Part shown: one piece after another, positions 1,478-62,400 of the stretch
Position numbering within the stretch: the first letter of the stretch is position 1
How the letters are laid out: each line of letters begins with the position of its first letter
Assembly (NCBI GenBank): GCA_016711705.1
Contig: JADJSK010000008.1
Coordinates: forward strand, 3,803-67,802
Source: Candidatus Brachybacter algidus
GTDB lineage: Bacteria > Bacteroidota > Bacteroidia > Chitinophagales > Saprospiraceae
Direction of reading: 5' to 3'
Length of the DNA: 64,000 nt
Notes under the pieces: model-generated
What the model was told of the DNA's origin: nothing
Databases searched by the model: none
Seen by the model: only the letters and a program-made list of their open reading frames with translations
Program-made: the position numbers and the translations under genes

Positions 1478-1631
1478 GTTAGAAAGTGAGAATGTGAGAA
1501 AGTGAGAAGGAGTCCACCCCCTTGGCCCCCTCCGAAGGGGGACATGTGGAGAGCCGCATGGTTTTGTTTATTATTCAATGTTTTAATATTAATGGAGTGA
1601 GAATGTGAGAAGGTGAGAAGGTGATGAGGAG
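1478..1631 (+). repeat. Arm-core-arm composite: GTGAGAAN octamer array (1478-1510), GC-hairpin element (1511-1545 plus conserved tail to about 1575), second octamer array (1594-1631)
   Basis: Read directly: gttagaaagtgagaatgtgagaaagtgagaagg / agtccacccccttggccccctccgaagggggacat... / ggagtgagaatgtgagaaggtgagaaggtgatgaggag. Confidence 0.9.
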
Positions 1632-1982
1632 TTAAACAAGTTTTTTTATTAATCCTGATAACATACTTTTGATATGATTCAATTTTCTGAACATCTCAGG
1701 ATCTTCTTTTATATATCCGATTCTATTTGATAAAATATATTGGGTTTCCAGTTCTGCGCAGGATCCAAGGGAATAAAAAAGAAACCTTTTAAATTCAGGA
1801 CCACTTTGCCTGGCTGCCCCTTCTGCTATATTAGACGGAATAGATATGGCGCATCTTCTCATTTGTGAGGAAAGTCCATATTTCTCATCTAAAGGTAAAC
1901 ATTTTGTGATTTCGTAAATGCTGGTAACTAAATCCATAGAAACTTGCCAGACCACGAGGTCTTTGTGGGATGAAATTTTCAT
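1632..1982 (-). CDS. Four-helix-bundle protein (TIGR02436, 23S rRNA intervening-sequence protein family)
   Basis: 116 aa with family hallmarks DLVVWQ, EKYGLSSQMRRCAISIPSNIAEG and GSCAELETQ. Confidence 0.9.
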   Translation of the reverse strand: MKISSHKDLVVWQVSMDLVTSIYEITKCLPLDEKYGLSSQMRRCAISIPSNIAEGAARQSGPEFKRFLFYSLGSCAELETQYILSNRIGYIKEDPEMFRKLNHIKSMLSGLIKKLV

Positions 1983-2066
1983 TTTAATTAAAATTTGGTG
2001 ATCAAAAACACTAAATTAAACATTATTCACCAAACCCTATAATAAATAACAAAAATATGCTTTTGA

Positions 2067-2106
2067 CCTCCCTTCTCACCTCCTCACTTCTTCACCTTCT
2101 CACCCC
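2067..2106 (-). repeat. Inverted copy of the GTGAGAAG array (reads cttctcac on the plus strand); partner arm of 1594-1631
   Basis: cctcccttctcacctcctcacttcttcaccttctcacccc. Its reverse complement aligns to 1594-1631 at about 28 of 38 positions (hand alignment). Confidence 0.85.
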
Positions 2107-2108
2107 TT

Positions 2109-3147
2109 CTATTCCAAATCTTCCAAACTTAATCTCTCCCCTTTTTCAATATTCCTCTTCACTTTCTTTCCCAACACTTCTTTAAAAAACTTCGGATGCA
2201 ATCCAAATCCCGGTCCTGATCGAACGGATATTCTTCTCAGTTAAAACTTCACCCTCAGCAATATTCTCTACTATATAAAGCGATCGACTAAAATCCTTCC
2301 CTTTTTTCTGCTTATCAGTCAGGTTATAATCAACTTTCCCTATTGCCTTTTCAGCTTCCCGGACTGCTTTTACCATCTCTGTGAATTCTGCTTCATTCAT
2401 GGAGAAGGATGAGTCAGGACCACCGATGGAACGGTCGAGGATGAAGTGCTTTTCAATTATTTTAGCTCCAAAACATGTAGCTACGACAGGTGCAGTGCTT
2501 CCGATGGTGTGATCCGACAATCCGACAATCATATTAAATCGTTCAGCGAAATCTTTTACCATGATCATATTTGCTTCTTCGATGGGAGCCGGGTAGGAAG
2601 ATGTGCATTTTAATAATGCGATATTTTCATTGCCCATGCGCTCACAAGCGTCGATGGCAAGTTCGATGTCTTCAAGTTCTGCGATGCCTGTGGAAATGAT
2701 GATGGGCTTTCCTTTGGATGCCACCAATTCTATCAATGGAATGTCTGTTATTTCAAAGGATGCTATTTTGTATGCCGGAACATTCAGACTTTCTAATAAT
2801 TCAACAGCTGTTGGGTCAAATGGCGATGAAAAACATTCTAATCCTTCTTCTCTTGCGACGGCGAACAATTGTTCGTGCCACTCCCACGGTGTAAATGCTT
2901 CCGAATACAAACTGTGTAAATTACGTCCTTCCCAGATGGTGCCTTTGATCAAAAAGTCATTCTTCTTTGAATCAATTGTGATGGTATCAGCTGTGTAAGT
3001 CTGAAATTTAATTGCGTCCGCACCGGCTCGTTTTGCGGCACGGATAGTTTCAATAGCTGTGTCCAGACTACCGTTGTGATTGGCGGATAGCTCAGCTATG
3101 ATGAAGACGGGGGAGGTGGAGGATATGGTGTAATTGCCTATTTGCAT
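2109..3147 (-). pseudogene. pseI: Pseudaminic acid synthase (NeuB/PseI family), one frameshift near the 3' end as sequenced
   Basis: ORF 2182..3147 has FIIAELSANHNG and the NeuB core. The SAF-domain tail SIRPGFGLHPKFFKEVLGKKVKRNIEKGERLSLEDLE is in another frame after about 2212-2217. The true stop is at 2109-2111. Confidence 0.85.
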
Positions 3148-3156
3148 TTTTATAAA

Positions 3157-3271
3157 GGTAGAAGTTAGAAGTTAGAAGGACGCTTTGGATGATATTTTAC
3201 TTTTTCTTAAAAGAGGATGCTTAAGGTTTAACAAAAGTTAGAAGGTGAGAATGTGAGAATGTGAGAAGGGG
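3157..3271 (+). repeat. Arm-core-arm composite with TTAGAAG/GTGAGAAT arrays (3157-3179 and 3236-3271) around a 56-nt core
   Basis: ggtagaagttagaagttagaagg ... agttagaaggtgagaatgtgagaatgtgagaagggg. Confidence 0.85.
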
Positions 3272-3528
3272 TCTTCGAAGTTTAATTTTTTGCTGAATGA
3301 AAAAGAAGATAAATCACAGAGGCAATTAGTTGCTATTATTTGCTGTTGTAATTGATATTCAGAATTTTAGAGAATTTAATGAAGATTTGAGATATATGAA
3401 TTCAATAATTATTTATATTAAAGATTCTACTTTGACTTAAATATTACACTACAAAATACAAGAGTTCACGGAGGGATTTTAATCTTTGATTAAAATTTTG
3501 CACAGATGAAACTGTTGTGCCTTGATTT

Positions 3529-3707
3529 GATTACCCATTACGCATTACCTATTTCCCATTATTTATCATTTATCATTTGAATTCATAATGTCACCACCTT
3601 CGGGGTTTTGGGATTTTCATGCATTTGATTTTCTATAAAAATGTCAACCTTTCAGGTTTTTTGCTTCATCATTACCCATTACTGATTACCCATTACTTAT
3701 AATCACC
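3529..3707 (+). repeat. Arm-core-arm composite with CATTACC heptamer arrays (3529-3579 and 3667-3707) around an 87-nt core
   Basis: gattacccattacgcattacctatttcccatt... and catcattacccattactgattacccattacttataatcacc. The right arm overlaps the last codons and stop of the pseG/H ORF. Confidence 0.85.
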
Positions 3708-5120: not shown

Positions 5121-5265
5121 GATATTATCTTTGATATTATTATGAACATGCCTACGACCTGAGATGATGAGGGAAATCCCAGGCCTACGACCTGGGTTAT
5201 GGGAAGTCGCCCTTTCAGGGCTAGTGGATAACCAAATATCATGAAATAAACTATTAAAATAACTA

Positions 5266-5310
5266 CTCATTACCCATTACCCATTACTCATTACCCATCT
5301 CCCATTTCAC
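5266..5310 (+). repeat. CATTACC heptamer array overlapping the pseF 3' end
   Basis: ctcattacccattacccattactcattacccatctcccatttcac. On the minus strand it encodes ...KWEMGNE and the stop. Confidence 0.85.
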
Positions 5311-5964
5311 CTCCGCCATCTTCCAGTCACTTTCATTGTCAATGTCCTGAACTTCCATTTCTGAAAGAATGATGACTTTAGAATTATCCGAGTACAAACT
5401 ATTACTAATTAATTCCGGTCGGAGCCAATACCACTGACCTGCATCGTGATAAGCCGCTGGTAGGTCCTGACTGCGGGTATGGCTGTATTCAGGCCAGTTC
5501 ATGGATACAAAATTATCTTCATCTACCTTTAAGGATCTAAGGATTGGAAATGAAAAAGGTACGACAGGAAATACACTTGCTATTTCATTTTCTAAAAGAT
5601 CTAAACCAGCTGTTAAATGCGATGATTTCATCAATGGAGCAGTGGGATAAATACAGCAAACTTCGTCGAATGTTCGATCTTCTTTTTTATAGGATTCCAG
5701 TACTTCTCTGATTACTTCAAGTGTCGTTGCTGTGTCGTTCGAAGTATTTTCTGACCTTAGGAACGGTACTTTAGCACCAAGTTCAAGGCTGATATTTTTT
5801 ATTTCTACATCATCTGTGGACACCATAACTTCATCAAATAAGCCACTTTTTAATGCGGCCTCGATCGAGTAAGCGATAATAGGTTTCCCGTGGAAATTTT
5901 TAATATTCTTTCTTGGAATTCTCTTACTTCCACCACGTGCCGGAATGATGGCCAGTCTAGCCAT
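5284..5964 (-). CDS. pseF: Pseudaminic acid cytidylyltransferase (CMP-sugar synthetase family)
   Basis: 226 aa, LAIIPARGGSKRIPRKNI motif, sits within the pse gene context. It is the only pse gene with an intact frame. Confidence 0.85.
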   Translation of the reverse strand: MARLAIIPARGGSKRIPRKNIKNFHGKPIIAYSIEAALKSGLFDEVMVSTDDVEIKNISLELGAKVPFLRSENTSNDTATTLEVIREVLESYKKEDRTFDEVCCIYPTAPLMKSSHLTAGLDLLENEIASVFPVVPFSFPILRSLKVDEDNFVSMNWPEYSHTRSQDLPAAYHDAGQWYWLRPELISNSLYSDNSKVIILSEMEVQDIDNESDWKMAEVKWEMGNE

Positions 5965-7139
5965 TATAGTAATTGTCGATGGTGTTGATGACGTATTGTT
6001 GTTCTTCTGAGGTCAATGTCGGAAACATAGGTAGACTAATGCAATGTCGGTAATATTGCTCTGAATGTGGCATATCTCCTTCCTTCCATCCAAATTGTTT
6101 GTAATAAGGCATCAAATGTGTAGGTATATAGTGGATCTGAGCAAAAATATTATGTTCCCTAAGATGTTTGTATAGACCTAATCTATTCTCTGCTTCAATC
6201 ACATACAAATGATAAGCATGACCTTCGATGACACCCGATTGACCTAGGATATATGTTTTTTCCTGAAATGCATTTTCATAAATTCTCGCTATTTCTCTTC
6301 TTCTTTTAATCCTTCTTCAGCTCGATTTAATTGGCTTAAGCCGAGGGCAGATTGAAATCTGTGATTCGATAATTGTATCCTAGTTGTTGCAATTCCATAT
6401 ACCATCCGGGTATTCATCGCCTCCACCACTGGCGAATTCCATAGAATTAGTATAATTATCATCTCCTTTAGTAATACCATGGGAGCGCAATCTATTTAAT
6501 TGCTTGTACAATTCTTCGTCATTGGTAGTGATCATCCCACCTTCCCCGCAAGCAATGTGTTTGACAGGGTGGAATGAAAATATGGCAAGTTCAGCAAATT
6601 TGCCATTTCCGCACCATTGTTCAACGCCATTTGTGTCTTTAAAATACCCTCCGGGAGCATGACAGGCATCTTCAATGATCCATAAACCGTATTCATCCGC
6701 TAATTTTCTAAATGCTTGCAAGTCCACTGCTCTTCCCGCAAAATCCACTGGAATAATTCTTTTGTAGTTCCCCTCATGGTCATTTTCTAATATCTTTCTT
6801 ACAGAATTAATATCAAGCAAATAAGTTTCAGGATCTATATCTCCAAAAACAACTTCTCCACCACAATATCTAACGCAATTAGCAGAAGCAGAAAAGGTAA
6901 TCGGAGTAGTTATTACCTTGTCTCCCGGTTTTACATCCAGCGACATTGTACAAAGATGCAGTGCGGCAGTGCCATTAGAAACTGCTACGCGTATTTGCTA
7001 CCTATGTATTTAGCAAAGCATTTTCAAACTCACCGATTTTAGGGCCTTGAGTCAGGTAGTCTGATTTCAGCGATTCTGTTACAGCTGCGATGTCGTCATC
7101 TGTTATATTTTGGCGTCCGTATGGAATGGGGTTTCTCAT
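5957..7139 (-). pseudogene. pseC: UDP-4-amino-4,6-dideoxy-N-acetyl-beta-L-altrosamine transaminase (DegT/DnrJ/EryC1 family), at least 5 frameshifts as sequenced
   Basis: The conserved protein is recoverable only by frame hopping: MRNPIPYGRQNITDDDI...GEFENA | FAKYIGSKYA | VAVSNGTAALHLCTMSLDVKPGDKV...GGGDEYP | GWYMELQQLGYNYRITDF | QSALGLSQLNRAEEGLK | RRREIARIYENAFQEK...YVIEAENR...DNYYNG. Breaks are near 7015, 6989, 6408, 6354 and 6305. Confidence 0.85.
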
Positions 7140-7168
7140 GTGAGTGTTGTGCTAATTATTTTTTTAGA

Positions 7169-7321
7169 AGTCCACCCCCTTGGCCCCCTCCGAAGGGGGA
7201 CATTCGTGTGGCCTCATGTTTGTTGTTATTAGTGAAAGTTGTACTAATAAGGATGGTTATATTTTTGTAATAAATATGATCGTATGATGTCCCCCCTTTG
7301 GAGGGGGCTAGGAGGTGGACT
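7169..7321. repeat. Two inverted copies of the GC-hairpin element (7169-7203 and 7287-7321), separated by 83 nt
   Basis: agtccacccccttggccccctccgaagggggacat versus atgtcccccctttggagggggctaggaggtggact (near reverse complements). Confidence 0.9.
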
Positions 7322-7386
7322 CGTTTGCACCTTCAAAGTTATTCAACATTTAGGTGGACCAACCAATTTACTATCCAATACTTCGC

Positions 7387-8397
<1,011 letters not shown>

Positions 8398-8415
8398 GGT
8401 TGTTTGTTTTTTGAT

Positions 8416-8471
8416 GGTCCACCCCCTTGGCCCCCTCCAAAGGGGGATATGCGTTTGGCCTCATATTTAAG
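8416..8471 (+). repeat. GC-hairpin element copy with conserved tail
   Basis: ggtccacccccttggccccctccaaagggggatatgcgtttggcctcatatttaag. It lies 18 nt from the pseB ATG. Confidence 0.9.
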
Positions 8472-8528
8472 TTTAATTTGAGAAACTTTTGCTCTTTGGT
8501 GTATTTTTCATTTTCATTCTTCATTAAT

Positions 8529-9581
8529 TTACCCGTACATCTCTTCATAATACTTCCTATAATCACCACTTGTCACGTGTTCCAGCCATTCGGAGTTAGA
8601 AAGGTACCAATCGATTGTTTTTTCTAGTCCTTCTTCGAAAGTGACGGATGGATACCAACCAAGTTCTTTGTTTATTTTGGAGGCATCGATGGCATAACGT
8701 CGGTCGTGGCCCGGACGGTCTTTGATGTAAGTAATTAACTGCTCTGATTCTCCCTGAGTTCTGTCTAGTTTCCGGTCCATGATGGAGCATAGTAACTTGA
8801 CGAGGTCGATATTTTTCCATTCGTTGAATCCACCGATATTGTAGGTTTCACCGATTTTTCCATTGTGAAACGCTGCGTCTATGGCTGTGCCGTGGTCTAT
8901 AACGTACAACCAGTCGCGAGTGTACAAACCATCTCCATACACCGGTAGGGATTTTTTTTGAATGATATTATTAATAAATAAAGGAATTAACTTTTCCGGA
9001 AAATGAAAAGGACCGTAATTGTTTGAACAATTAGAGATCATGACCGGCATGCCGTATGTGTCACCAAAAGCGCGGACCATATGATCCGAAGATGCTTTGC
9101 TGGCACTGTATGGTGAATGGGGATCGTACTTGGTTTCTTCAGTAAAGAAGCCAGTTTCTCCTAAAGCGCCATAAACTTCATCAGTGGAAACGTGGTAAAA
9201 TAAATGACCATCCTTTTCATTATCCCAATGTTCGCGGGCAGCCTGAAGCAGGTTTGCTGTTCCCATGACATTCGTTTCGATGAATACAAATGGATTTTCT
9301 ATCGATCGGTCTACATGACTTTCTGCTGCAAGATGAATGACATGGGTGATGTTATATTCTTTGAAAACATATCTCAAGGTCCCGAGGTCACAAATATCTC
9401 CTTTAATAAAGCGATAATTACCAGCGGCTTCGATGTCTTTGACATTTTCAAGATTACCTGCGTAGGTCAACAGATCGAAATTGAAAATATTATATTCCGG
9501 ATATTTATTGACAAATAGCCTGGCTACGTGTGAACCTATGAAGCCAGCTGCACCGGTGATAAGAATGTTTTTAGAACTCAT
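8529..9581 (-). CDS. rfbB: dTDP-glucose 4,6-dehydratase
   Basis: 350 aa, ILITGAAGFIGSH..., YSASKASSDH catalytic motif, RmlB-like throughout. Confidence 0.95.
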   Translation of the reverse strand: MSSKNILITGAAGFIGSHVARLFVNKYPEYNIFNFDLLTYAGNLENVKDIEAAGNYRFIKGDICDLGTLRYVFKEYNITHVIHLAAESHVDRSIENPFVFIETNVMGTANLLQAAREHWDNEKDGHLFYHVSTDEVYGALGETGFFTEETKYDPHSPYSASKASSDHMVRAFGDTYGMPVMISNCSNNYGPFHFPEKLIPLFINNIIQKKSLPVYGDGLYTRDWLYVIDHGTAIDAAFHNGKIGETYNIGGFNEWKNIDLVKLLCSIMDRKLDRTQGESEQLITYIKDRPGHDRRYAIDASKINKELGWYPSVTFEEGLEKTIDWYLSNSEWLEHVTSGDYRKYYEEMYG

Positions 9582-9585
9582 TAAA

Positions 9586-10554
9586 TTATTTTGATATTGA
9601 ATTTTTATACCAATCGAAGGATTTTTTCAAACCTTCCTTAACTTTTATTTTTGGGTCATAATTGAGCAGTGTTTTGGCTTTTGAAATATCTGCTAAACTT
9701 GCTCTAACGTCACCTTGTCTCGAACTTCGATAATTTGCATTAAGTTCAGAATTGCCAATTAATTTTAATTCATTCCACATTTCATTGATGGTAATACTAT
9801 CTCCAAGAGCGACATTATAAACCTGATTAAATGCTTCTTCATTTTCTGTAAATAAGGCCAATAGATTGATTTGAACTACGTTTTCGATAAATGTAAAATC
9901 TCTGCTTTGTTCACCATCTCCGTTGATAAATGGGGCATCATTGTCCAAAATAGCCTTGTTGAAAAGCGGAATTACTGCTGCGTATTGACCATTCGGATCT
10001 TGTCGTGGGCCGAACACATTAAAATATCTCAATCCGATAAATTCCAAGCCATATAAATCACCAAATACTTTTGCGTACAATTCATTGACATATTTTGTAA
10101 CCGCATAAGGTGAAAGCGGCAAGCCAATATTGTTTTCTACTTTAGGTAAATTTGGACTATCTCCATAAGTGGAAGATGATGCTGCATAGACAACTCTTGA
10201 AATGCCTGCATTTTTAGCTGCAGTGAAAATATTTAACGTCCCTGAAATATTTACATCATTGGTGGTTAACGGATCTTCAATGCTACGAGGCACGGATCCC
10301 AATGCTGCCTGGTGACAAACAATAGCAATGTCTTCCATTGCTTTCGTACAATCTTCAAAATTTCTGATATCACCTTGCTGGAATTGGAAATTTTCGTTTG
10401 AAAGATTGTGATTTATGTTTTGCATTTTGCCGGTAGCTAAATTATCCAGGACGCGCACAAATCCAATATCAGGCAATGCCAAAAGTGCATCAGCTATGTG
10501 CGAACCTATGAATCCTGCTCCACCGGTGATCAGTATATTTTGCTTCTTCATCAT
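9586..10554 (-). CDS. NAD-dependent sugar-nucleotide 4-epimerase (WbpP/TviC-like)
   Basis: 322 aa, [24 protein letters not shown] (YxxxK). The stop of the upstream dehydrogenase overlaps its start. Confidence 0.8.
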
Positions 10555-12508: not shown

Positions 12509-13809
12509 GGCCTCCCTATCGATTCAAAATAAAATCCATTTTGTTGCATCGTGGCCGGATCGAAGATATTTCTACCATCGAAGATTGCTTTGTCGATCAA
12601 TTTACTTTTAATAAAGTTGAAGTCAGGTGAACGGAATTCATTCCATTCAGTGAGTATCATCAGCGCATTTGCATTATTTAAAACCTCATATTGGTCATTC
12701 GCGAAGGCTATTTTATCACCATATAATTTTTCCACATTTTCCATTGCTTCCGGATCGAATGCCTGGACAATAGCTCCTGCTTTTAATAATTTTTCAATGA
12801 TGTATAATGCCGGAGCTTCACGGATATCGTCTGTATTTGGTTTGAATGCTAGACCCCAAAGAGCAATGGTTTTACCTTTCAGGTCACCTTTATAATAATT
12901 TCTGATCTTGTCGAATAGGACGGTTCTTTGTTTTTCATTGACCTTGATCACAGAATCCAGAATGCTGAACTCGTATTCGTTCTGGTCAGCTATTTTTGCC
13001 AAAGCTTTGACATCCTTCGGGAAACAAGACCCTCCATAACCAATGCCGGGAAATAAAAACCTTTTTCCAATTCTCGTATCAGAACCCATGCCTAGACGCA
13101 CCATGTCTACATTAGCACCTACTTTTTCACATAGATTTGCGATCTCATTCATGAAAGTGATCTTGGTAGCAAGAAATGAATTCGCAGCGTATTTGGTCAA
13201 CTCTGCAGAACGTTCATCCATGAAGTAAATCGGATTTCCTTGTTTGACGAAGGGTTCATAAAGGGTGCGCATCACTTCTCTGGCTCTCTCAGAATTAGTA
13301 CCGATTACGACTCTATCAGGCTTCATAAAATCTTCCACAGCAACTCCTTCTCTTAGAAATTCCGGATTGGAAACCACATCAAACAAATCTTCCGAAATAT
13401 TCTTTGCAATGGCATTATGAACCATTTCTGCTGTTCCTACAGGAACTGTGCTTTTATCGATAATGATTTTATATTTTTTTATCAAATTGCCCAACTTATT
13501 CGCTACATCGATAATGTAAGATAGGTCGGCAGAACCATCTTCTCCTTCCGGAGTAGGTAATGCAAGGAAAATAATATCACCAAAATCCACTGCTTTTGCA
13601 AGATCAGTGGTAAATTCCAGTCTTTTCTTTTCGATATTTCTGTGAAAAATTACTTCAAGTCCAGGTTCGTAAATAGTAATTTTACCTGCGCTAAGACTTT
13701 TGACTTTTTCCTCATTTATGTCCACACACATGACATGATTGCCTGTCTCAGAGAAACATGTTCCTGTGACGAGTCCAACGTAGCCGGTGCCGATAACTGT
13801 GATGTTCAA
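12505..13809 (-). CDS. ugd: UDP-glucose 6-dehydrogenase
   Basis: 434 aa, NITVIGTGYVGLVTG, GGSCFPKDV active-site motif. The apparent TTG start (13807-13809) lies inside a repeat arm. Confidence 0.93.
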   Translation of the reverse strand: MNITVIGTGYVGLVTGTCFSETGNHVMCVDINEEKVKSLSAGKITIYEPGLEVIFHRNIEKKRLEFTTDLAKAVDFGDIIFLALPTPEGEDGSADLSYIIDVANKLGNLIKKYKIIIDKSTVPVGTAEMVHNAIAKNISEDLFDVVSNPEFLREGVAVEDFMKPDRVVIGTNSERAREVMRTLYEPFVKQGNPIYFMDERSAELTKYAANSFLATKITFMNEIANLCEKVGANVDMVRLGMGSDTRIGKRFLFPGIGYGGSCFPKDVKALAKIADQNEYEFSILDSVIKVNEKQRTVLFDKIRNYYKGDLKGKTIALWGLAFKPNTDDIREAPALYIIEKLLKAGAIVQAFDPEAMENVEKLYGDKIAFANDQYEVLNNANALMILTEWNEFRSPDFNFIKSKLIDKAIFDGRNIFDPATMQQNGFYFESIGRP

Positions 13810-13990
13810 TTGTTAATTATTAGTTGTTAATTGTTATTCTACCCCGATGTGAAGGGACTGTAAAATGTTTGATTTGAGCAAGGAGGTTCAATTGTTAATT
13901 ATTAGTTGTTAATTGTTATACTACTTTGATTTGAAGGATCTATTAAACGGTTATTTTGTGCGAAGTTGGATAATTGTTAATTATTATTTG
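13805..13990 (+). repeat. About 2.3 tandem copies of an 82-bp unit (33-nt TTGTTAAT-type arm plus about 50-nt core)
   Basis: ttcaattgttaattattagttgttaattgttat is exact at 13805-13837 and 13887-13919. A partial arm ataattgttaattattatttgg lies at 13968-13990. Confidence 0.95.
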
Positions 13991-14358
13991 GGTGTGGGAT
14001 TCCTATTTTGCTTTGCTTTCGATGTTTTTATGATACTGGTTAGCATTTTTATTAGCTCGATGCTAATTGAATTTAGTCTTTCGAATTTATCTTTTGAAAT
14101 AAGATTCGAACCATTTAAAAGCTCTAACCAATATATTGTTTCATTGCTTTCTTTTTGAGCAATTGACAATTTATGAATAAAATCCTTTCCACTTTCGGCA
14201 TGTTGTGCTTCTCTATATAATGCACCGATCGCTGTTCCTGAGCGTAAGAGTTGATTTGATAAAACAAATTCTTTCTTTGTTGTTTGTAAATCTCTGCATA
14301 ATTCAACAACATCAAGGGCAAACTGAAAACTTTTGGTTTTAAAGTGATTCTCTGTCAT
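13984..14358 (-). CDS. Four-helix-bundle protein (TIGR02436 family, second subtype)
   Basis: 124 aa with LLRSGTAIGALYREAQHAES, FIHKLSIAQKESNETIYWLELL. Confidence 0.88.
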   Translation of the reverse strand: MTENHFKTKSFQFALDVVELCRDLQTTKKEFVLSNQLLRSGTAIGALYREAQHAESGKDFIHKLSIAQKESNETIYWLELLNGSNLISKDKFERLNSISIELIKMLTSIIKTSKAKQNRNPTPK

Positions 14359-14408
14359 AATTCCGGGTGAATTTATCTATTTTTATATATTCTTCAATCT
14401 GTGCAAAA

Positions 14409-48392: not shown

Positions 48393-51300
48393 TTAATTCA
48401 AAAGGAATCGGAATGTTACCCCTCCTCTTTGAGATATCGTCTTAAACTGTTGTGATGTCTTAGGACTTGAAAGATTGTAGTCATAAAACAGTCTGAGTGT
48501 AAGATTCTTGTTGTATTCATACTCAATATTCGGGGCTATTCTAAATGTAGTAGCACCTCTTGAAGTAAGTGTCCTGTCCTGATCTATAAAATGACTCACA
48601 GAAATATCATCTCGGTAAGATACATCCAGTCTAAAAATAAGGTCATTGGCAGAAGGTGCTTTTCTGGAGCCACCGGCACCTGGCTGTGAGGAAGTTTTGG
48701 TTGTATCTTTTTCCTTATCCTTTTTCTTCTTAGATTTTTTCTTTTGGAATTCTTTCATGAAAGGCAACTTTACATTGTGCATTTCATATCCTGCTCCAAT
48801 CGTGAAATCAGAAGTTTTAGTCTCATTCACCAGGTTATCAACGAATGACAAAGAAAGGTTTCTGATTTTTTTATAATCTACATTAAAGGTAATGTCATTT
48901 TTAGTTTTAAAATCGAACCTGATCAAAGGGGACAATCCTTCAGTGATAGAAATAGCAGGTATCTCCAGCCTACTGTAATAGTTCTGTGTGATCGGATTGA
49001 CCAATGTCGGGTCATTAGCATCGAAATAAGGAGAGGTATTAAAGCTATTGACTGTCAACGTAGATTTATAGGCATGAGAAACATTGATACTCGAAAAATA
49101 TTTCTTAAAGAAAGCAATCTTAGTCAGTCCATTATATGTCACTTGCCAGTTGACCTTTGGAGTAGTCTTAAATGCATCTAAATTCTGCGTGGCGGCACTT
49201 TTGTTTGAATAAGCAGCCAGGAAGGCAGGTACAAGCACCTCTTGCTGTATCCTTCCAAACCCTTCAGCATATCCTGTAGTTGGATCCGGATTAGTACCTA
49301 ACCTATTTGAAATAACCACTCTATTGGATTCAAATCGCTTGAACACATCGTCAATATCATTAAAGAAAGTACCCAATGTAAAGAAAGTCGTGGTATAAGA
49401 ACCGACATCCCTGCCGCTATATCTACCAAACCCTTCTCCGGGGGCCTTGATCTTGAACAATTCTGTGTGCGTTTCCTGATAGGTCTTACCCGCGTTTAGA
49501 TCAATTTTAAAATCGTTGAAAGGTTCTAAATTGACTCTTCCTTCTATGACTTGATTCTTACCAAGGATAACCAATTGATTTTGGAATATATTCTTAGTGA
49601 TCCATTGATTATTCGGTGCTATGGCCCTTTCAAAATATGCATTGTCGGGTTGCCAGCCAGCTACATAACTAAGTCCGGGAGCATCCCAGGAGTCCATACC
49701 CAAAGCTGTGGTCTTAGGTGTATATCCAGGAATTGATGAGTTTAAGTTTTCCGTATAGGTTAATCTGGCTTTTCTCACACTAAGCAATGGCCTTATCAAT
49801 ATACGTTCTGCAAGGGATGGTTGATAGTTCGCCCTCCTCTCTATTCGTTCCTGCTTGCGTTTAGCCTTGTCTTTTTCTTTCTTAAGCTTAGCTTTTTCTG
49901 CTTTAGTCAGACTCGCTGTGGAAGTAGAGTCTACTTTTGCATCACCATCCTTATTTTTACCTATTTTACCATCTTCAGGAGTATTTTTATCGCCTTGTTT
50001 CTTTGGAGGTGTGACTTTATCACCTTTTTTAGGAGTAGTCTTAGTACCGGGTTTTTCAATCTTTTTGAGATAGTCCCATTTAGCATATAATCTATCAAAA
50101 CTTAGATCAGCATTGATCTGTCTGATCTGAGTATTCTGGATCACATTACCCAAAGTATCCACATTGATAGCAGCAGCACTCCAGGTATATGAACCTCCGT
50201 ACAATGCCCGCATCGTAACCCACTCCATGAATGGAATGTTTTTAAATGGCACGTTATAGTTCAGGTTGAATGTATGCTTATAGTTTTTATTCCTTCCAAG
50301 ATTTTTTACATTATTCCATATTTCGGCTCGATTGCTATTGGTATTAAAAGCAGGATCAGGAAGCCCGGAATCTACAAATCTGTCACTTAATTCATCTATT
50401 ACTGCAGTATTCTGAGCGACAAAATCAAATTTCAATGATTTGGTGAGATCCCAGTTAAGACTGTAATTTCTATCCCACAAGAAGTTCCTTGTTCTCCAGG
50501 TACTTTGGAATGGATCCGTAAACCTGTACAATTTAGTGCTGTATAATCTATTGAGTTGGGTATTAAAGGTAAATGTATTGGGAACCAAATTAAAATTAAG
50601 GTCCGTAATAAACTTGACGTATTTATCCTTTTTGATTGCCTTAGCAAATGGAGCTATATAAAGAGGCTTCATTGTAAAGTTGTAATCGAATCCACCTTTG
50701 TATTGATCTGTTTGATCATTGGCTATGATGGGATCAGTACGTTTAGTTCTGGAATGTCCATAAGTAAAACTAAAGTTTTCTATGTCCCACGGAAGCGGAG
50801 TTGAGGCTTTGTTTAATCTCTCTTTGCGTACATTATTGAATGAATAACTGGTAATATTTTCGTATTCTATCGCTTGTTCGCGAAGACTATCTTTGACATT
50901 TGCATCTACAGTATTCAGTTTATCTTTCAATTTTATATCGAGATCGTAAGGATCATATTCTGGTGTTTTGACACTGGTAGTATACTGATAGTAAAAAGGA
51001 ATTTTAATTCCGGTCTTACCCGGTATAAATTTACCAAGTTCCAGATTGGTGCTGATATCATATTGATAGTTGGATTCAATAGCTCTCTCCTGGAGTCTTT
51101 GATCCAGCGCTCCCCATCCAAGTGAAGAATATGCGCCTGAAAGCGTAAGTGTTCCGAGGTCAGCAAGTTGAAAATCTAATCTGGAGATAGCAGCTACACC
51201 ACCTCGCTCATCGAATCCTGTCATCCGGAGTTCATTGACCCAGATCTCACCACACCGGGGTATTCCGCCATCTTTATTATGGATGCCTATCATGATTCCT

Positions 51301-54300
51301 TTGACGTAACCAAGGTTAGGATTCCCTTTACAGTAATGGTATTATTTGGTTTCTCTGGATCCGGCTTGGAGTAATAAGTACCTACACCATTTAATTTATT
51401 CCTTTCTTCTTTCAATTTAGTGAGCACTTCCAAAGGAAAATTGAAAGCATTCTGTTCCAGCCATACTTCATCACTGTATAAAAAGATGTCATTGGACAAT
51501 GCTTTAAGTTTGTCCAGATCTGACATTTTTAATGGAACCTCATATTCATAATAGTTATCAGTAAAGTCACTACCGATTCTCAGGAAGAGGCTTAAATCTC
51601 CTTCAGGAATTGAGTTATTCTGATCAGCAAGAGTCTCCGCATGAACAAACATTTTCAATCGGTCATATCTCCTCATGTCAATGTTTGTATTTTTAAATAC
51701 ACCTACTCTATAATCTTCAGGTAGATTACAGAAATTCATTGCAAGTGATTGTTCATTCTGAAATGTCTCTGCATATGCACCTACAGCTCTCTCCAATCTC
51801 AAACCTTTAGGCAGGACATAGGATACCGGGATTTTGGCAGAGTTGTCTTCAAAATTGACTGCATTCAGATCAAATTTTAGATCTGAAAAAGGTGGTTGAA
51901 TAATGATAGGACCGTCTATAGCGCCCGTAATACCTCTGGTGTACTTCCTCCATTGATTCCTGACAAGATCCATTCGTGCAAATCGCATGATGGTTTGTTG
52001 ACCGAAATCTTTCATGAATAATCTCATGAATCGAATAGATCGAAAATCGCTAATACCTCCTACTGTTTGTGTTGGCTGATTGATCGGAACTTTAAATCTG
52101 TACCAAACCTCCTCATCATTTCGGCCATGTATCGTATCTGTAATGAATTGGTTCAGCTTAATTCCATTACCACCGTCCCACTCTATTGGAATCTCGTATT
52201 GATAATATGCTTCAGATTCGTTCAGCGAGTTGTCATTGTTTATATCTTCGCGATCGGGATAGTTGGTAGAGGCTGATTGGACACTTGCATTACTTTGTGT
52301 AGGCTTTGAATTACCTTCTTGTCCGTTGAACTTCCTATATCTTTCAAGAATGGGAGAATTGTTGTCAAATTCTCTAAAATGCTGGAAGTCATCGGCAGAA
52401 GGATCAGCAAGGATTTTTGCTTTTGCATCCGCACTCAAATTCGAGTTTTGAATTGCATTGATAAAATCAGTATAGTATGCTCTTTCCTGTTCGCTGTTTA
52501 ATGCATCAAGTCCAACATCCTGAGCCTGACGCTTGGTAAGGTCATTGTCAAAAGCATTGATAAATTGGTTCACTGCCGGAATATTACCCCATACTGAATT
52601 AAATATTTTTTGATTGTCATCATTTGGACCAGGCAAACCGTTTTCAAAGAAATTTCTTGAATCCCTCAATACATCCTCAGAAACATTCCCTAAATTGATA
52701 AATATCTTACCGCTTGAAGTGTTTTGAACACCATTAGGTCTGGCCAAGAAAGGGCTTAACATATAGAATTCAATAAATTCATAGTTTTGTGCCTCAAAAT
52801 CAGAGTTTGTAATAGCCCGTTGAATACCTGCCCATCTAGAAGTAGGTTCATTGAGACCACCCGCAGAGTTTAATCCTGCAGAAAATCCAGGATAACCACC
52901 CGGGATATCAAAGTTATAAGGCCCTCGCTCTGTTGGATCATATACTACGTCAAAAGTATATAAGCCGTTGTTGATACCTACGACATTGTTCCTTCTTTTG
53001 AATACCTCATTAATAGCAACAAATCTCGAGTATGGGTCATTGATATCAGTTGGGTTTAAGGCATTAACCTCTGCACGGAACCAATTCAAGTGCGCTCTAT
53101 TGGCACCATAGGCAAGATTGTTCGTCAACATTGATTCCTTGAAAAGCGGGTTATTGTTGGCATTATCGTTCTGAGGTACACTTGAGATAAACCATTCCTG
53201 GGTCGGGGTTCTTAGATCAAAACTCGATGTACTGCCTTCAAAGTCATCTATATAAGCAGAACCTCCTACGTCAGCCAAGTTATTGATAAACTTCGAATGA
53301 CCCGGTTGTAGCAAGGCAAATTCGGAAGTCAAATTGACTTTTGAAGCTTCTTTAGTCTGAATCAAAGGCAACTTATCGACTAGTCTTGTCAACCATTCAG
53401 CATCTTTCGAAAAGTTGAAATCTACCCCATACACTTTATTATTAAGTGGATCATCTCCGAGATTGACTTTTTGAGTATATGGCCTTTCTGAGAGTCTCAT
53501 GAAAGTACCTCCGATATTGATATTCTTATTTATAGCATAGTCAGCGCGCAAGCCCATCATTGACTTTTGCTGAAAACTGAATAAAGCATTATCCTCAAAG
53601 GAGACATTGACAGGTACTCCTGAAGTGAGATAGGCATCATTGATGATGTTGACCTTACCCGCAGAATAATCTATGGTATAATCTTGATTTTCTACCAGTT
53701 GCGTACCTCCGGCTGTCACCTTCACAGAACCCTGAGGCACATTAAATGCACCTAATGAGATCTCAGAAGAGACTGAAGATTTATACGACCCCTTTAAAGT
53801 AAATCGATTTTTCTCGGGATATTCACGTGCCCTGGTTATTGTCCTGGTATAAAGATCAGGATAAGTATAGCGTTCAGCGAGGCTAGAATTATTAATTTTT
53901 TTGGCGAGGTCACTTCCAAATGGCTCTAGTACAGGGAACATGATCCTACCAGTTCTGCTATTGATCGTGACGCCTTCCACAAAGTCAAATACTCCATCCG
54001 GCTGCGGATCACCCGTAGTGTTCAAGTTGTCCAGATTGAAAATTCTCAAAAGAGGTTGACCTTTGAGGTCTGTATCTGGAAGGAATCTCTTCTGCCCATA
54101 ACCCGGATCTTCGTAAAAAACATCAAGTCTGAAGTCAAGCGCATTTGTTTGATAAGCTCCGACAGAATAGATGTTTTTCATCATCAGATTCCAAAGTGGA
54201 ACTTCCGTTTTCTGCGAGGTCGCTTTCAGTAATTTGACAAAAATCACATTCGGCTCTACCGGATTGACGGGAACTTCATAAGAGAATTCTCCTACTTGAT

Positions 54301-55765
54301 AGATCTTGTCATTATATCTATATCTGTAGGATACACCCAATACTTGATCTGGTCTTAAGCCAATATTTATTGAAACGAAGCCTAATTCAGGATGAAAGGT
54401 ATAATCAGTTCCGCTTCGAAGCTTTCTTGCTCTTACTTTTTCAAAATCCTTAGTTTGAACAAGGTTTAATGGGGAGCCTTGCAGGGTATTAATAGTTCTG
54501 CTGAGCGGACGACTATTTAATGAATCCTGAATAGCAAGCTGATTATACAACTTGTTTGAATTGTTGTTCGGCAACTCAATTCTTCCTGTATAATCAGGAT
54601 GATTTACAGATAATGTGTCGTTGATCAGTGGATTATAAGTGGTTAATGTCTTCCATTCACCCAAATCCGCCAATGCTACAATGTCCCTTACATCCTCAGT
54701 CTCCTGGCGGTCATTGGTTACCCAAACCTCAATATCTGTTATGGAGAAAAGAGAATTGATCTGAGGAAGTGTTTTCAACGCTTTATTAAACTCATTTCTA
54801 TTGTACTGTGACAATAGGAAGTGTTTGTTTTCATCATATTGGTCGATGGGTAGTGAAAAAGTCTGTAACTGACTACCACCTTGCAATTGTAAGTTTTTCC
54901 GTTCTGATTTCTGTTGGGATATCAAACCGGTTACTTTCAAATGACCGAACTGGAGATCAGCTTTTATTCCGAAAAGTGACTGACTACCTTGAATTAACGA
55001 ACTACGCAATGGCAAACTAACGTTACCCGCTTCAATTTTTCTAAGAATATCGTCCTCTCCAAAGCTTCCTCCATCAAAATTTATCTTGATCACCTGGTCA
55101 AAATCAAATTGGGATTGAGTATTGTAATTGGCGTTAATATTTAATTTTTCGCCTACTTTCCCAGCAATACTTAAGTCTATGGTAGGTTGAAAATCAAAAT
55201 TGGTATATTTTCTTTGGCGCTCAGTAGCTGTTGGATTGAAGGTATTATTGGAGCTCAAGCCCAGGTTGATGTCTACACTACCTGCCGGTTTGATATCTAT
55301 ATTATCACTTCCAAAGAGTCTGGTGATGATGGAAGTACTGGTCTTATACCCTTCTAATGGGTCTTTTGCCTGGCCAGAATTTTTACCATCCGATATACCT
55401 GCCAACTTATTAAAATAAGACGTTTCTTGTTCTTTGGCTTTTGCTGCCATAAATTCTGAGAAGGTCATTCCCACAGGAGCTTCCAGAAAATCAGAACCTA
55501 ATTTTGTAGATTCAAAGTAACTATCAGTTTCAGGATCATAATTGAATCCCTGATCGATATCAGGAGGTAATTTTAGATTGATTGGATTGGTCGTATCGAT
55601 GGGATAGATGGACTTGCGCACCGGAATTGTATCCTGTGCGTGTTCATCTGTAGATTCTTTAGTGTTATTTAAGAATCCTCTTCTAATCAGGTTCCCGGCG
55701 GTCAAGGCATAAATCCCGAGACAAATGATTAAAACAGGACCGAATGTGTTGATTTTAAAATTCAT
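48393..55765 (-). CDS. sprA: T9SS translocon SprA (about 2450 aa), one frameshift as sequenced
   Basis: ORFs 51290..55765 (1491 aa) and 48393..51293 (966 aa) are the N- and C-terminal parts of one SprA. The junction reads ...NNTITVK | GNPNLGYVKGIMIGIHNKDGG... if one base is restored at the TT run at 51322-51323. Confidence 0.88.
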
Positions 55766-59853: not shown

Positions 59854-60183
59854 AGGACAAATATTTTGGTGAATAGGTTTTGAATTTGTGAAGATTAAGC
59901 AGTGGTGCTTGTTTTATTAAGAGATTTATTTTAGTTTTTGTATTTAAAATAGGATTTTATAGAAAGCATTTTTTTAGAAAAATGTTAGATTTTAATTTTT
60001 ATGTAAAGCATTTTATATATCGATAGACATCGTTGGCCAAGTATATTCTCTACTTTTGTATTGACACAAAAAGTAGCAAAAAAAGTCAAGGCTGGACGTC
60101 CTGCCTACGTCACGCATCTGCCAGCTAGGGTTCATACACATCTTTTTAATTTATATCAAAGTGAAACTTTGGTGACACCCCGA

Positions 60184-60280
60184 CGTAGGTTAACCTACGC
60201 CGAACCTTCACGATCATTGTTTTGACTATAAATTAATGTACATCATTCGCTGTGGAACGTTGAGCTTAGGTTAACCTAAG
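60184..60280. promoter_or_regulatory. Two perfect 16-bp palindromes sharing a TAGGTTAACCTA core, 81 bp apart
   Basis: cgtaggttaacctacg at 60184-60199 and cttaggttaacctaag at 60265-60280, in the 850-bp divergent helicase/PLD spacer. Confidence 0.5.
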
Positions 60281-60709
60281 TTCGTGTGTCTGCAAAATTC
60301 ATTTTGCTTATAATAAACTTAAAATCAATAAATTATCTTGCTATTCATAGAAGAGCCTTTATTGAAAAAATACTTATGTATAAACCCTACCTCTACAACA
60401 GGGGAAGTAAAAATTTTAACGCCCAATCCCAACCAGCCAGCCATCCATCTTCATTTAATTAATAAAGCAATTATTTTGTATCAACCATCTACAATCTTTT
60501 ATTAACTAAATAAATTCAAGTAATTTATACACTCAAATTGACCTAACAAAGATAATTCGAAAAACAAAGAAGTTTCAATTTACAAACGTTTATAGTCGTT
60601 TGTAAGCGTTTATTATCGGTTATCTTGAATAAATGGAAGATTTTTGAAATACACTTTTCGACTACAATAAATATACACTCAACAATCTAACAACTCCTTA
60701 TATTTGTAC

Positions 60710-62248
60710 ATGCGCATCCTCCTACTTCCGACTTATTTATTTTTACTGACTCTGGTATTATTTTCCTGTACCAAAACACCTCCTCCGATGACTGAAGCAA
60801 CTGATTTCTGTTCCAAAATCCACAGAAATGATTCAATTAGTTTGACTCAGGAATTATCCGATTACCAGGAAAAAATGAAGACCCAAACAGGCGTATATGT
60901 TTTGGAAGATGGCGGCAGGTCGTTGATAACCCGGGCATGGCTTTCTGAGTATGCAGAAAAGACCATAGATATTCAATACTTTATATTTTCAACAGACAAC
61001 GTCGGCCTCATTGCATGTGATTATTTGGTGCGAGCAGCAGATCGTGGTGTAAAAGTCAGAATCCTTGTCGATGATATTATGGTGGATGCAGCATTGGAGG
61101 ATATTCTCATCTTTGACAGCCATCCAAATATTGAGGTCAAAATTTACAATCCCGGTGTCAATCTTGGGAAGAATATTTTCAATAAACTCCACAAATTTGC
61201 CACCGATTTTCGCTCTGCCAATCAACGTATGCACAACAAGACCTTTATCGTCGATAAGCAAGTCGTCATCACCGGAGGCAGAAATATAGCAGATGAATAT
61301 TTTGATTACGATCATGAATACAATTTCCGGGACAGAGATGTCCTACTGATGGGAAAGGTTTCCGGAGAGGTAAATAAATCCTTTGAAGAATTTTGGAACA
61401 GCGATCTGAGCATTCCTGCCGTCGATCTTATAGGAAAGGACAAGATTGTGCCAACTGAAGCGAAACGTTTCGACAAACTTCATGAATATGCATGCAATCC
61501 GGATAATTTCTGGCCACAAGTCAGAAACGAAATCGAAAATTTTAGAGACATCATTGAAGAAATCAAAAAGTCAAATCATTTCATTTGGTTAGATAATGTC
61601 GAATTTGTCTCAGATATACCCGGCAAAAACGACGGCAGCAAAGGCCTTGGAGGTGGCGGAGTTTGCACCGATGCACTGATCAAACTGATTAAAAATGCAA
61701 ATACAAGTTTAGATCTACAGACGCCATATTTAATAACAACTGAGCTCAGCCGCGGGCTTTTCAGAGATGCTGTAAATCGTGGAGTAAAGGTTAGAATACT
61801 TACAAATAGTCTATCTTCCACTGACAATGTCGAAGCCTTTAGCGCCTATCAATCGGACCGCAAGGAGTTGTTGGCGACCGGTGTCAGAATCTTTGAATTC
61901 CGTCCGGATGCTGAAGAACGTATGTCCATCATGACCGGTGAATTACAAAAGACAATCGATTACAAACCTATATTTGGTCATCATGCCAAATCTATGGTCG
62001 TAGATGGCAAAATCGCTGTCATAGGCACTTTCAATCTTGACCCGCGTAGTGCCAATCTCAACACAGAATGTGTGGCTATTGTACACTCAGATCTAATTGC
62101 TCAAGGAGTATTAAAAGGAATGGAAGAGGAATACAAACCCGGCAATAGTTGGGAGATAACTAAGGATTTCAACCCTGATTCAAAAGTTTCGAGAAAGAAG
62201 CGGTTGAAGACATGGACGAGGAAGGTGCTGCCGAAGGGGATACTGTGA
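60710..62248 (+). CDS. Phospholipase D-family lipoprotein (two HKD motifs)
   Basis: Lipobox LVLFSC. HKD motifs HNKTFIVDKQVVITGGRN and HAKSMVVDGKIAVIGTFN. ATG 60710 is preferred over the TTG at 60704. Confidence 0.85.
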   Translation: MRILLLPTYLFLLTLVLFSCTKTPPPMTEATDFCSKIHRNDSISLTQELSDYQEKMKTQTGVYVLEDGGRSLITRAWLSEYAEKTIDIQYFIFSTDNVGLIACDYLVRAADRGVKVRILVDDIMVDAALEDILIFDSHPNIEVKIYNPGVNLGKNIFNKLHKFATDFRSANQRMHNKTFIVDKQVVITGGRNIADEYFDYDHEYNFRDRDVLLMGKVSGEVNKSFEEFWNSDLSIPAVDLIGKDKIVPTEAKRFDKLHEYACNPDNFWPQVRNEIENFRDIIEEIKKSNHFIWLDNVEFVSDIPGKNDGSKGLGGGGVCTDALIKLIKNANTSLDLQTPYLITTELSRGLFRDAVNRGVKVRILTNSLSSTDNVEAFSAYQSDRKELLATGVRIFEFRPDAEERMSIMTGELQKTIDYKPIFGHHAKSMVVDGKIAVIGTFNLDPRSANLNTECVAIVHSDLIAQGVLKGMEEEYKPGNSWEITKDFNPDSKVSRKKRLKTWTRKVLPKGIL

Positions 62249-62250
62249 AA

Positions 62251-62400
62251 AAATTATAAATGGTGAATGATAAATTATAAATGGTGAGTAATGGGTAATG
62301 GGTAATGGGTAATGGGTAATGGGTAATAGGTAATGGGTAATGGGTAATGGGTAATAGGTAATAGGTAATAGGTAATAGGTAATGAGTGATAATTGATAAG
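62251..62400 (+). repeat. Longest heptamer array in the window: about 15 units of GGTAATR, preceded by the attataaatggtgaatg module
   Basis: taatgggtaatgggtaatgggtaatgggtaatgggtaataggtaatgggtaatgggtaatgggtaataggtaataggtaataggtaataggtaatg. Confidence 0.95.

Follow-up and report, generated by a model that had tools for sequence, protein, structure and literature searches.

The window analysed in this study is a stretch of 64,000 nucleotides from contig JADJSK010000008.1, and exact protein matches assigned it to Candidatus Brachybacter algidus, a member of the Saprospiraceae from activated sludge. Its proteins include SprA, an M36 peptidase with a C-terminal domain of the type IX secretion system (T9SS) and the UpxY antiterminator, in agreement with the Bacteroidota host proposed in an earlier, sequence-only reading. 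The present work deals with the short tandem arrays of 7- or 8-nt units in its intergenic spacers, and with the two four-helix-bundle genes of the PF05635/TIGR02436 family that are enclosed by inverted pairs of such arrays. Each gene, together with its two flanking arrays (arms), is referred to as a cassette, and both cassettes lie on the minus strand.

The four-helix-bundle gene of cassette 1 (1632-1982) encodes a 23S_rRNA_IVP protein of 116 aa, with E values of 4e-36 for PF05635 and 2e-26 for PDB 2GSC, and with a TIGR02436 score of 119.9 bits (cutoff 24). Its 5' arm (2067-2109), located by Tandem Repeats Finder (TRF), consists of C-free GGTGAGAAGG-type 8-mers on the sense strand of the gene and is inverted to 1597-1624. 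The 3' arm (1595-1631, TRF) is of the G-free CCTTCTCAC type on the same strand and was identical in seven assemblies. The GGTGAGAAGG-type units upstream and the CCTTCTCACC-type units downstream are in inverted orientation, and GTGAGAAG is the unit of these arms. The gene of cassette 2 (13984-14358) encodes 124 aa (PF05635 E = 5e-25; TIGR02436 104 bits) and lies directly downstream of the UpxY antiterminator gene (14546-15058). Its 5' arm (14409-14438) is built of TTGTTAAT/TTAGTTA units on the sense strand and belongs to the inverted repeat I20, in which it is 97% complementary to 13890-13919. The 3' arm (13803-13990) is duplicated as an 82-nt tandem repeat of array plus core with 2.3 copies (TRF period 82, family D13), and it was identical across the assemblies covering the region. 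In predicted RNA folds, the array stem closed both cassettes in the minimum-free-energy as well as the centroid structure, with z = -5.0 for cassette 1 and -4.45 for cassette 2. The two genes are 29% identical to each other and their arms are different. The neighbours of the cassettes are the genes of UpxY, UDP-glucose dehydrogenase, NeuB and a nucleotidyltransferase; cassette 2 stands between the UpxY gene and the first biosynthetic gene of a polysaccharide locus (13984-15058), a position kept in 9/9 assemblies. When all six frames of the window were searched by profile for degraded four-helix-bundle genes, the two intact genes and nothing else were returned. The open reading frame (ORF) at 62610-63137, downstream of a 14-unit array, was also considered, and profile searches showed that it is not a member of PF05635/TIGR02436.

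In this genome, the spacers contain genuine tandem arrays with units of 7 and 8 nt, belonging to the known heptamer class that resembles the short tandemly repeated repetitive (STRR) sequences. TRF (score >=30) gave 25 rows of period 7 and 17 rows of period 8 in the window, against 1.9 and 2.2 expected from third-order Markov shuffles, and the other periods were at expectation or modestly higher. A stricter self-match detector found 10 arrays, without exception of period 7 or 8, where 0 were expected. Array bases accounted for 1279/11881 (10.8%) of the intergenic and 242/52119 (0.5%) of the coding bases, and 34 of the 43 merged array blocks were intergenic. The sequence-only reading was therefore sound in calling the arrays STRR-like and biased towards spacers, and each coordinate range it had given holds 7- or 8-nt units of the sequence it named. 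Its claim that nearly every spacer carries an array was overstated, as 16 of the 37 spacers with a length of 30 nt or more contained one. That two sets of arrays form inverted pairs around genes had escaped this reading. Nearly all of the arrays are almost C-free or almost G-free, with point degeneracy at the unit level. About nine unit families recur at dispersed spacers, among them GTGAGAAG at 1.5, 3.2 and 44 kb, CATTACC at 3.5, 5.3 and 62 kb (the unit of an array at 40 kb, CACCATT, is related to it), and AATTGAA at 23, 24 and 44 kb. Adjacent arrays of like unit in direct orientation made up 4/17 pairs, whereas 0.36 were expected by permutation (P = 0.0002), so the proposed pairing of like arrays does exceed chance. 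Many arrays lie 3-20 nt from a start or stop codon, and in the window C-type arrays precede start codons and G-type arrays follow stop codons (p = 0.024). A scan of the window with Rfam gave no family match and no rRNA, and a tRNA search of the window found none.

The composition of the units also bears on the view that the arrays are G-quadruplex or i-motif elements, as has been proposed for the GGGNATC repeats of Xanthomonas and Nostoc. The 14-unit GGGTAAT array (62288-62384) and its complement at 5264-5306 contain regular G3 tracts and would suit this view; they were the only arrays with at least four such tracts. G3 tracts are absent from most of the units (GTGAGAAG, AATTGAA, TTGTTAAT, TCAGTGG and GGCTGAT) and from most arms elsewhere, such as AGTTAAT, CGTATTG and AAATAGA. 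As an account of the arrays, this view is considered highly improbable.

The arrays were compared among independent assemblies from NCBI, JGI and ENA. The unit number was equal in seven assemblies for the arrays at about 1478-2109 and in eight to nine assemblies (those covering each spacer) for the arrays at about 13803-14438. Likewise, the GTAATGG array (62288-62384) had 14 units in 9/9 assemblies and differed by point changes alone. An assembly or sequencing artefact might be suspected, as the source lineage is known from metagenome-assembled genomes (MAGs) and several genes of the window are split. The recurrence of identical arrays with equal unit counts in these assemblies refutes it, and its probability is practically zero. 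Because the counts agree at three loci, the arrays are neither assembly artefacts nor hypervariable; the confinement to assembly-problem regions that the sequence-only reading had seen as a danger did not occur, and the dynamic spacers with strain-to-strain copy-number variation that it had envisaged were not borne out. A contingency-locus or phase-variation reading was dropped, because no variation in unit number appeared at these loci among 7-9 assemblies. Other differences were seen between strains. The composite array at 43.9-44.4 kb differs in one assembly (L115), and the spacer 3148-3685 is swapped for another allele in strains L001/L002 of the same species. The two alleles of the acetyltransferase-NeuB junction carry different heptamers of 3 units, CTTCTAA and CCACTGA, and either one ends 8-9 nt before the NeuB start. 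Furthermore, SprA is split into overlapping ORFs (48393-51293 and 51290-55765), and an aminotransferase (about 5957-7154), an epimerase (about 7402-8415) and a Por_Secre_tail fragment (42184-42895) are interrupted as well in comparison with other assemblies; the breaks could represent frameshift errors in a long-read MAG, or the genes could be genuine pseudogenes.

The association of arrays with the gene family was then evaluated beyond the window. The sample contained 80 metagenome loci picked by two peptide motifs of the protein alone, 2 cyanobacterial MAG loci from a genome scan, 10 loci from named genomes and the 2 window genes, and 86 genes were analysed. The named genomes were the cyanobacteria Nostoc PCC 7120 (two plasmids), N. 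edaphicum, Calothrix, Geminocystis, Pseudanabaena and Picosynechococcus, and, from other phyla, Gemmatirosa, Kaistella, Flavobacterium, an Omnitrophota MAG and Stygiobacter. The sampled members came from at least five phyla, and the family as a whole is very large: a homologue search scored no more than the best 8000 candidates, of which 7960 matched. Arrays of 7 or 8 nt were found on both sides of 49 genes, on one side of 26 and on neither side of 11, so that 75/86 had an array on at least one side. Among the flanking array rows, 85 had period 7 and 37 had period 8, with almost none of other periods. The inverted-complement score of the two flanks was higher than in all 20 shuffles in 63/77 loci, and the scores in direct orientation were at background. 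The downstream unit was the reverse complement of the upstream unit, with at most one mismatch, in 26/40 comparable pairs. Moreover, C was scarcer than G in 51/56 upstream arms and G was scarcer than C in 61/68 downstream arms, and the median arm had 4.4 units, or about 32 nt. A blind search for inverted pairs of like-unit arrays led to four further members of the family. These results show that a subset of the arrays are the inverted arms of a cassette, consisting of a C-poor array of about four units (about 32 nt), a short leader, a PF05635/TIGR02436 gene of 115-125 aa and a G-poor array that is the reverse complement of the first. Across phyla, such arms of inverted arrays are a general feature of this gene family.

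The neighbours were co-directional with the gene on both sides in 45/50 loci, and they include wzm/wzt, cas10/cmr3, cas6/cas4, parA/parB, type II secretion system (T2SS) E/F, gyrB/adk and polysaccharide genes. None of the approximately 110 loci examined showed similarity to 23S rRNA. A second cassette family was also considered, and the ORFs inside other inverted array pairs proved to be ordinary cassette neighbours (GyrB, Adk, epimerases and kinases). The array density was 18.9% at <=150 nt of the ORF and 1.66% at >400 nt in the same contigs. This 11-fold difference bears on the possibility that the arrays are neutral by-products of polymerase slippage under weak selection, with an incidental association with the four-helix-bundle gene. 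Their intergenic position, the point degeneracy of the units and the polymerase-footprint account of heptamer excess in the literature (quoted in PMC4692102) would be in accordance with slippage. The density beside the gene, the complementarity of the arms, their strict rules of composition and polarity, the constant unit number across strains and the conservation of units across species all speak against it, and we regard slippage as quite unlikely.

Several individual cassettes deserve description. In Pseudanabaena galeata pPg_01 (L094, 367-1066), a deviant cassette lies between cas6 and cas4, with direct arms of AAAAGCT x15.6 upstream and AAAAGCC x14 downstream, and with an inverted GCTTTTA x10.9 array farther upstream. 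The plasmids gamma (L089) and alpha (L090) of Nostoc PCC 7120 encode an identical four-helix-bundle protein (WP_010994075.1) with adjacent transposase genes, and they carry the downstream CTTCTGC/TCTGCCC array but no upstream arm, the latter apparently having been removed when an insertion sequence integrated. Four cyanobacterial cassettes are located within or beside CRISPR-Cas loci (L007 and L008, from MAGs, 8000-10300; L094; L095), which may reflect chance or a preference for such operons.

Two filled/empty comparisons show that gain and loss affect the arms and the ORF together, as a single block between genes that are usually co-directional. In N. edaphicum the cassette separates nrdB from nrdA, whereas Calothrix NIES-4105 has nrdB and nrdA with a spacer of about 20 nt. 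Similarly, Picosynechococcus PCC 7003 carries the cassette between cas10 and cmr3, where the start codon of cmr3 directly adjoins the 3' arm, and PCC 7002 has a 12-nt spacer at this position. Arrays were absent from both empty sites, and no target-site duplication was evident at the two filled sites. The period of the arms followed the protein tree, the nearest neighbour being of equal period in 61/74 cases (42.7 expected), and units were kept in orthologous cassettes while the flanking proteins were 51-93% identical. Related cassettes also occurred in unrelated contexts (L028 compared with L012/L034, and Geminocystis with a second N. edaphicum cassette). In the latter pair, GGGAAAA/TTTTCCC of Geminocystis corresponds to GGGAACA/TGTTCCC of N. 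edaphicum, with the change in every unit of both arms. As the gene diverges, all units of the two arms thus change in step, a concerted and compensatory change that argues for selection on, or homogenisation of, arm complementarity.

On balance, we find it somewhat probable that the PF05635 cassettes, whose inverted arms are formed by this subset of arrays, are transcribed by read-through and processed by RNase III in the manner of the intervening sequences (IVSs) of rRNA, and that the orphan arrays derive from such arms. The cassette would be read through as part of the host operon transcript, and the arms would pair into a duplex of 25-60 bp, looping out the ORF. RNase III would then process the arm duplex, by analogy with the 23S rRNA intervening sequence of Coxiella, and the insertion would therefore do little harm to the host transcript. 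As the two arms form an inverted repeat, the G-rich one is the first to be met on whichever strand is read. This polarity may spare host operons the exposure of a C-rich, G-poor, unstructured site for Rho loading. The sequence preferences of Rho are established, and an arm of this kind, if transcribed first, would resemble its loading site.

Orphan arrays have the same periods and the same C-free or G-free composition as the cassette arms. The cassette-1 unit GTGAGAAG appears again at 3240 and, some 40 kb away from its cassette, at 44140 and 44302. In the vicinity of cassettes, like-unit arrays occur in alternating orientation about neighbour genes, as with NeuB in the window and with gyrB/adk and others elsewhere. 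In the gene-bearing contigs, more than 400 nt from the gene, there were 89 arrays of period 7 and 38 of period 8, against 16 expected for each, and 50 kb of E. coli contained 1 and 0, respectively. The orphans would, by a weaker line of reasoning, derive from arms or from the same process through local spread and higher-order tandem duplication. This derivation is plausible but unproven, because the polarity rule of the window (p = 0.024) fails in the metagenome sample (p = 0.78). Orphan cores could not be shown to be dead cassettes, because no decayed genes turned up in the window.

A number of points weigh against the read-through and processing of an IVS-like cassette as the source of the arrays. 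Some 35 of the 43 window blocks have no four-helix-bundle gene beside them, and gene remnants were found in none of the other window spacers by the six-frame profile search. In 82 loci, 111 of 254 array blocks were more than 200 nt from any family member, and for arrays away from the gene in the metagenome loci the stop/start polarity did not hold. Deviating cassettes exist, namely those with direct arms in Pseudanabaena, those with the 3' arm alone in Nostoc PCC 7120 and the 11/86 genes lacking arrays. In addition, the processing of non-rRNA cassettes by RNase III would be an extrapolation from Coxiella, and the proposed mechanism leaves the 7-8-nt period unexplained. Finally, 89 G:U and 101 A:C juxtapositions were counted in 64 stems, with no bias towards selection on the sense transcript.

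As there is no excess of G:U wobble, the pairing could be maintained at the DNA level. The arms might accordingly belong to a foldback-type mobile element with terminal inverted repeats of tandem units, the complementarity being kept by intramolecular template switching or gene conversion rather than by selection on RNA. In the form of hairpins or cruciforms, these arms would be the target of a recombination or replication-repair activity in which the encoded protein may take part. The presence or absence of arms and ORF as one block, the related cassettes in unrelated contexts, the wobble counts and the concerted spread of unit changes over both arms are in agreement with such an element. On the other side, the cassette encodes no recombinase, the window copies with their low identity and different arms do not indicate recent transposition, and a target-site duplication was not visible at the filled sites. 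The prevailing co-orientation with the neighbours would also be unexpected for a symmetric DNA element, unless its expression needs read-through. We consider action at the DNA level possible, though doubtful.

The arrays could also be operators or binding sites for a repeat-binding protein, either the four-helix-bundle protein itself or a single-strand binder of the S1/Csp type, and the orphans would then form a post-transcriptional regulon. One unit could putatively be bound per subunit of an Avd-like pentamer, to which the median of 4.4 units per array would correspond. The retention of its own unit and period by each gene lineage, the recurrence of the cassette-1 unit at distant spacers and the position of many arrays 3-20 nt from start or stop codons would fit, and repeat-binding regulators have been proposed before (MacGregor 2015). 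Plain linkage, however, explains why unit and gene are inherited together, the protein of Coxiella does not appear to be expressed, and about nine unit families in the window face two family genes. Such a role of the arrays is therefore judged unlikely.

The remaining arrays of the window are without strand assignment and were located by TRF unless noted otherwise. A further GTGAGAAG array lies at 1478-1510 (repeat finding). The core of the first arm-core-arm module (1508-1592) is a copy of a dispersed element of about 85 nt with a CCCCCTCCGAAGGGGG hairpin (repeat families D4 and D6). The orphan TTAGAAG and GTGAGAAT arrays at 3155-3271 enclose a 61-nt core, are inverted relative to 2067-2109 and end 8 nt upstream of the NeuB start codon. 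CATTACC and ATTTATC arrays surround a 91-nt core at 3530-3697 (family D9), and a TACCCAT array of 6 units (5264-5306, also by the stricter detector) occupies a gene junction. An AATTGAA array with 4.4 units was found at 23090-23120 (also by the stricter detector; family D7), followed by a composite of GGCTGAT, AATTGAA and TAAAGCT arrays at 24257-24540 with a higher-order unit of about 140 nt (families D14 and D15). Upstream of rpmH, an ATTTATA array is followed by a CACCCGAT/ATCACCC array of 10 units (24842-24958, also by the stricter detector). A CCAATAG array lies at 30000-30025 (family D10). The 16-nt tandem repeat ATACTCTAATACTGAC (30181-30255, 4.3 copies, family D8) is built of two related 8-mers, and its end is 3 nt from the stop of a TPR gene (30258-30581). 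An AATGGTG array (40040-40070, family D12) stands 18 nt upstream of the start of the gene at 39143-40036. The composite at 43912-44412 combines TCAGTGG, GGAAAAT, GTGAGAAG and CAGCCAAT arrays with a 156-nt higher-order repeat (families D3 and D5). Directly after the stop codon of the gene at 60704-62248, an AAATGAT array is followed by the GTAATGG array of 14 units (62251-62384, also by the stricter detector).

The periods of the higher-order repeats of array plus core were 82 nt (13803-13990, the 3' arm of cassette 2, which is itself one of the arm-core-arm modules), about 140 nt (24257-24540) and 156 nt (44088-44412). The arm-core-arm modules appear to be secondary, resulting from higher-order tandem duplication plus a single dispersed element inside an array. 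They are thus not supported as the basic organisation that the sequence-only reading had taken them for, and the cores that it had called unique are so only in part: this description does not hold for the approximately 85-nt element, with 3-5 window copies, or for parts of the 82-, 140- and 156-nt repeats. Other copies of the 85-nt element are at 7166-7250 and 8413-8497, both outside arrays, and a partial copy (63531-63565) and an inverted partial copy (near 7285-7330) were also found; the copy at 1508-1592 lies inside the GTGAGAAG array. An arrangement that may correspond to nesting of the Nostoc type, with a dispersed repeat inside an array, was seen in this one case, and the other cores are parts of higher-order repeats. 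In this element, a GC-rich hairpin (GTCCACCCCCTTGGCCCCCTCCGAAGGGGGAC) precedes an AT-rich tail, and Rfam gave no match to it. A minus-strand gene of the polysaccharide locus starts shortly downstream of each of the three full copies.

Several other repeats were observed in the window. A second small dispersed element forms a 92-nt inverted pair (24687-24778 and 63207-63298) that is 89% complementary over a distance of 38 kb; it contains GGTGCGCTGCACC palindromes, and related palindromes are present at 24620-24660. A 32-nt tandem repeat of 2.3 copies (516-600), partly palindromic with AATTGCGTCAACCAACTGACTGAATTTAGCTA, lies at the junction of two minus-strand genes and is outside the 7/8-nt class. 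Four in-frame 276-nt repeats encoding PKD-like domains (36249-37189) are located within the gene of the 1593-aa M36 peptidase. The Rho gene (21090-22946) encodes 618 aa in total, with a long low-complexity N-terminal insertion.

Heptamer arrays have been known from cyanobacteria as STRRs for decades, and some ten years ago they were also recognised in Xanthomonas, Beggiatoaceae and a few Bacteroidetes. To our knowledge, neither a carrier nor a mechanism has been found for them so far. The PF05635/TIGR02436 family was named after a rare rRNA context. Our study names a carrier for a defined subset of the arrays, namely an IVS-like four-helix-bundle cassette with tandem-array arms in operons across phyla. 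The origin of the arrays thereby becomes testable, and the cassette may explain part of it. The rRNA intervening sequences can accordingly be viewed as one of the niches of a general cassette that invades operons. A rule for finding such cassettes is to look for inverted like-unit arrays, and for annotation the cassettes account for many long 'empty' spacers in operons for polysaccharides, CRISPR-Cas and other functions. A bolder proposal, to which we attach a low probability, is that much of the STRR-type load of Cyanobacteria, Bacteroidota, Xanthomonas, Beggiatoaceae and others is the footprint of one widespread selfish PF05635 foldback cassette, whose Avd-like oligomeric protein would recognise or maintain its own arms at about one unit per subunit, setting the 7-8-nt period and seeding the orphans. 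If so, the 23S rRNA intervening sequences would be a rare special case of this foldback cassette.

Among known systems, the foldback transposons of eukaryotes possess terminal inverted repeats built of short tandem units. Terminal inverted repeats, as in MITEs and foldback elements, are present in our cassettes by the complementarity of the flanks. The foldback transposons are, however, eukaryotic, much longer and unrelated, and no transposase partner is known for the present cassettes. The accessory protein Avd of diversity-generating retroelements (DGRs) has a distantly related four-helix-bundle fold, with co-hits to PF22296 (bAvd) and a weak match to NF033474. This match was 16.9 bits compared with a cutoff of 80, and the neighbours were ordinary operon genes, with no reverse transcriptase or template/variable repeats.

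The STRRs of heterocystous cyanobacteria, with small dispersed repeats nested in heptamer arrays, were reportedly described by Mazel in 1990 and Elhai in 2008. The window is like them in its intergenic tandem heptamers, in the several unit families per genome and in the one small element lying inside an array (1508-1592). It differs in that the host belongs to the Saprospiraceae, that 8-mers are as common as 7-mers, and that the units are C-free or G-free. As far as could be found, the descriptions of cyanobacterial STRRs link the arrays to no gene family. The sequence-only reading had left a choice between convergence and a shared mechanism. PF05635 cassettes with inverted arms occur in this Saprospiraceae genome, in Nostoc, Calothrix, Geminocystis and Picosynechococcus and in other phyla, and because this cassette links the two phyla, a shared insertion mechanism is favoured over pure convergence.

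The occurrence in Bacteroidota, which the sequence-only reading had found unexpected, had a precedent in the heptamer arrays of five Bacteroidetes, namely Flexibacter, Gramella, Aequorivita, Paludibacter and Elizabethkingia (MacGregor 2015, PMC4679880). In that study, horizontal spread among Cyanobacteria, Beggiatoaceae and Bacteroidetes was suspected, and repeat-binding regulators, even a mobile repeat-binding protein, were proposed. The TAACTGA and other heptamers of Beggiatoaceae are similar to ours in forming intergenic arrays near start codons and in their occurrence in Cyanobacteria and Bacteroidetes. One unit dominates that genome and no carrier element was given (PMC4679880), whereas many unit families and a defined cassette were found here. 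The GGGNATC arrays of Xanthomonas and Nostoc have been read as G-quadruplex elements (Rehm et al. 2015, PMC4692102). They lie between co-directional ORFs at <=50 bp from stop or start codons, and Xanthomonas has 70-75 convergent inverted pairs per genome, with arrays stable between species. Their placement and inverted pairs agree with our observations, while a single unit is used genome-wide. The four-helix-bundle gene is mentioned in neither MacGregor 2015 nor Rehm 2015, and 2GSC, the family's only solved structure, comes from Xanthomonas campestris.

The closest parallel is the 23S rRNA IVS of Coxiella burnetii and Leptospira, and that of Coxiella was the only published link between the gene family and heptamer arrays that was found, although full-text coverage was incomplete and an earlier notice is possible. 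In Coxiella, 2-3 GACAGAT heptamers lie upstream of the S23p ORF, and the 5' cut of RNase III was mapped to the first repeat, inside the stem of inverted repeats (Warrier et al. 2016, PMC4990558). As in the present cassettes, an S23p/PF05635 ORF is placed inside inverted repeats that form a long stem, the ORF is in the sense orientation of the host transcript, and the tandem heptamers of Coxiella are just upstream of it (PMC4990558). Insertion in helix 9, 25 or 45 of 23S rRNA, which is characteristic of the IVS, was not seen here, as the window contains no rRNA and the loci have no 23S similarity. In contrast to the IVS, the present cassettes lie between protein-coding genes of polysaccharide, CRISPR-Cas, nrd, par and T2SS operons, and both of their arms are multi-unit arrays.

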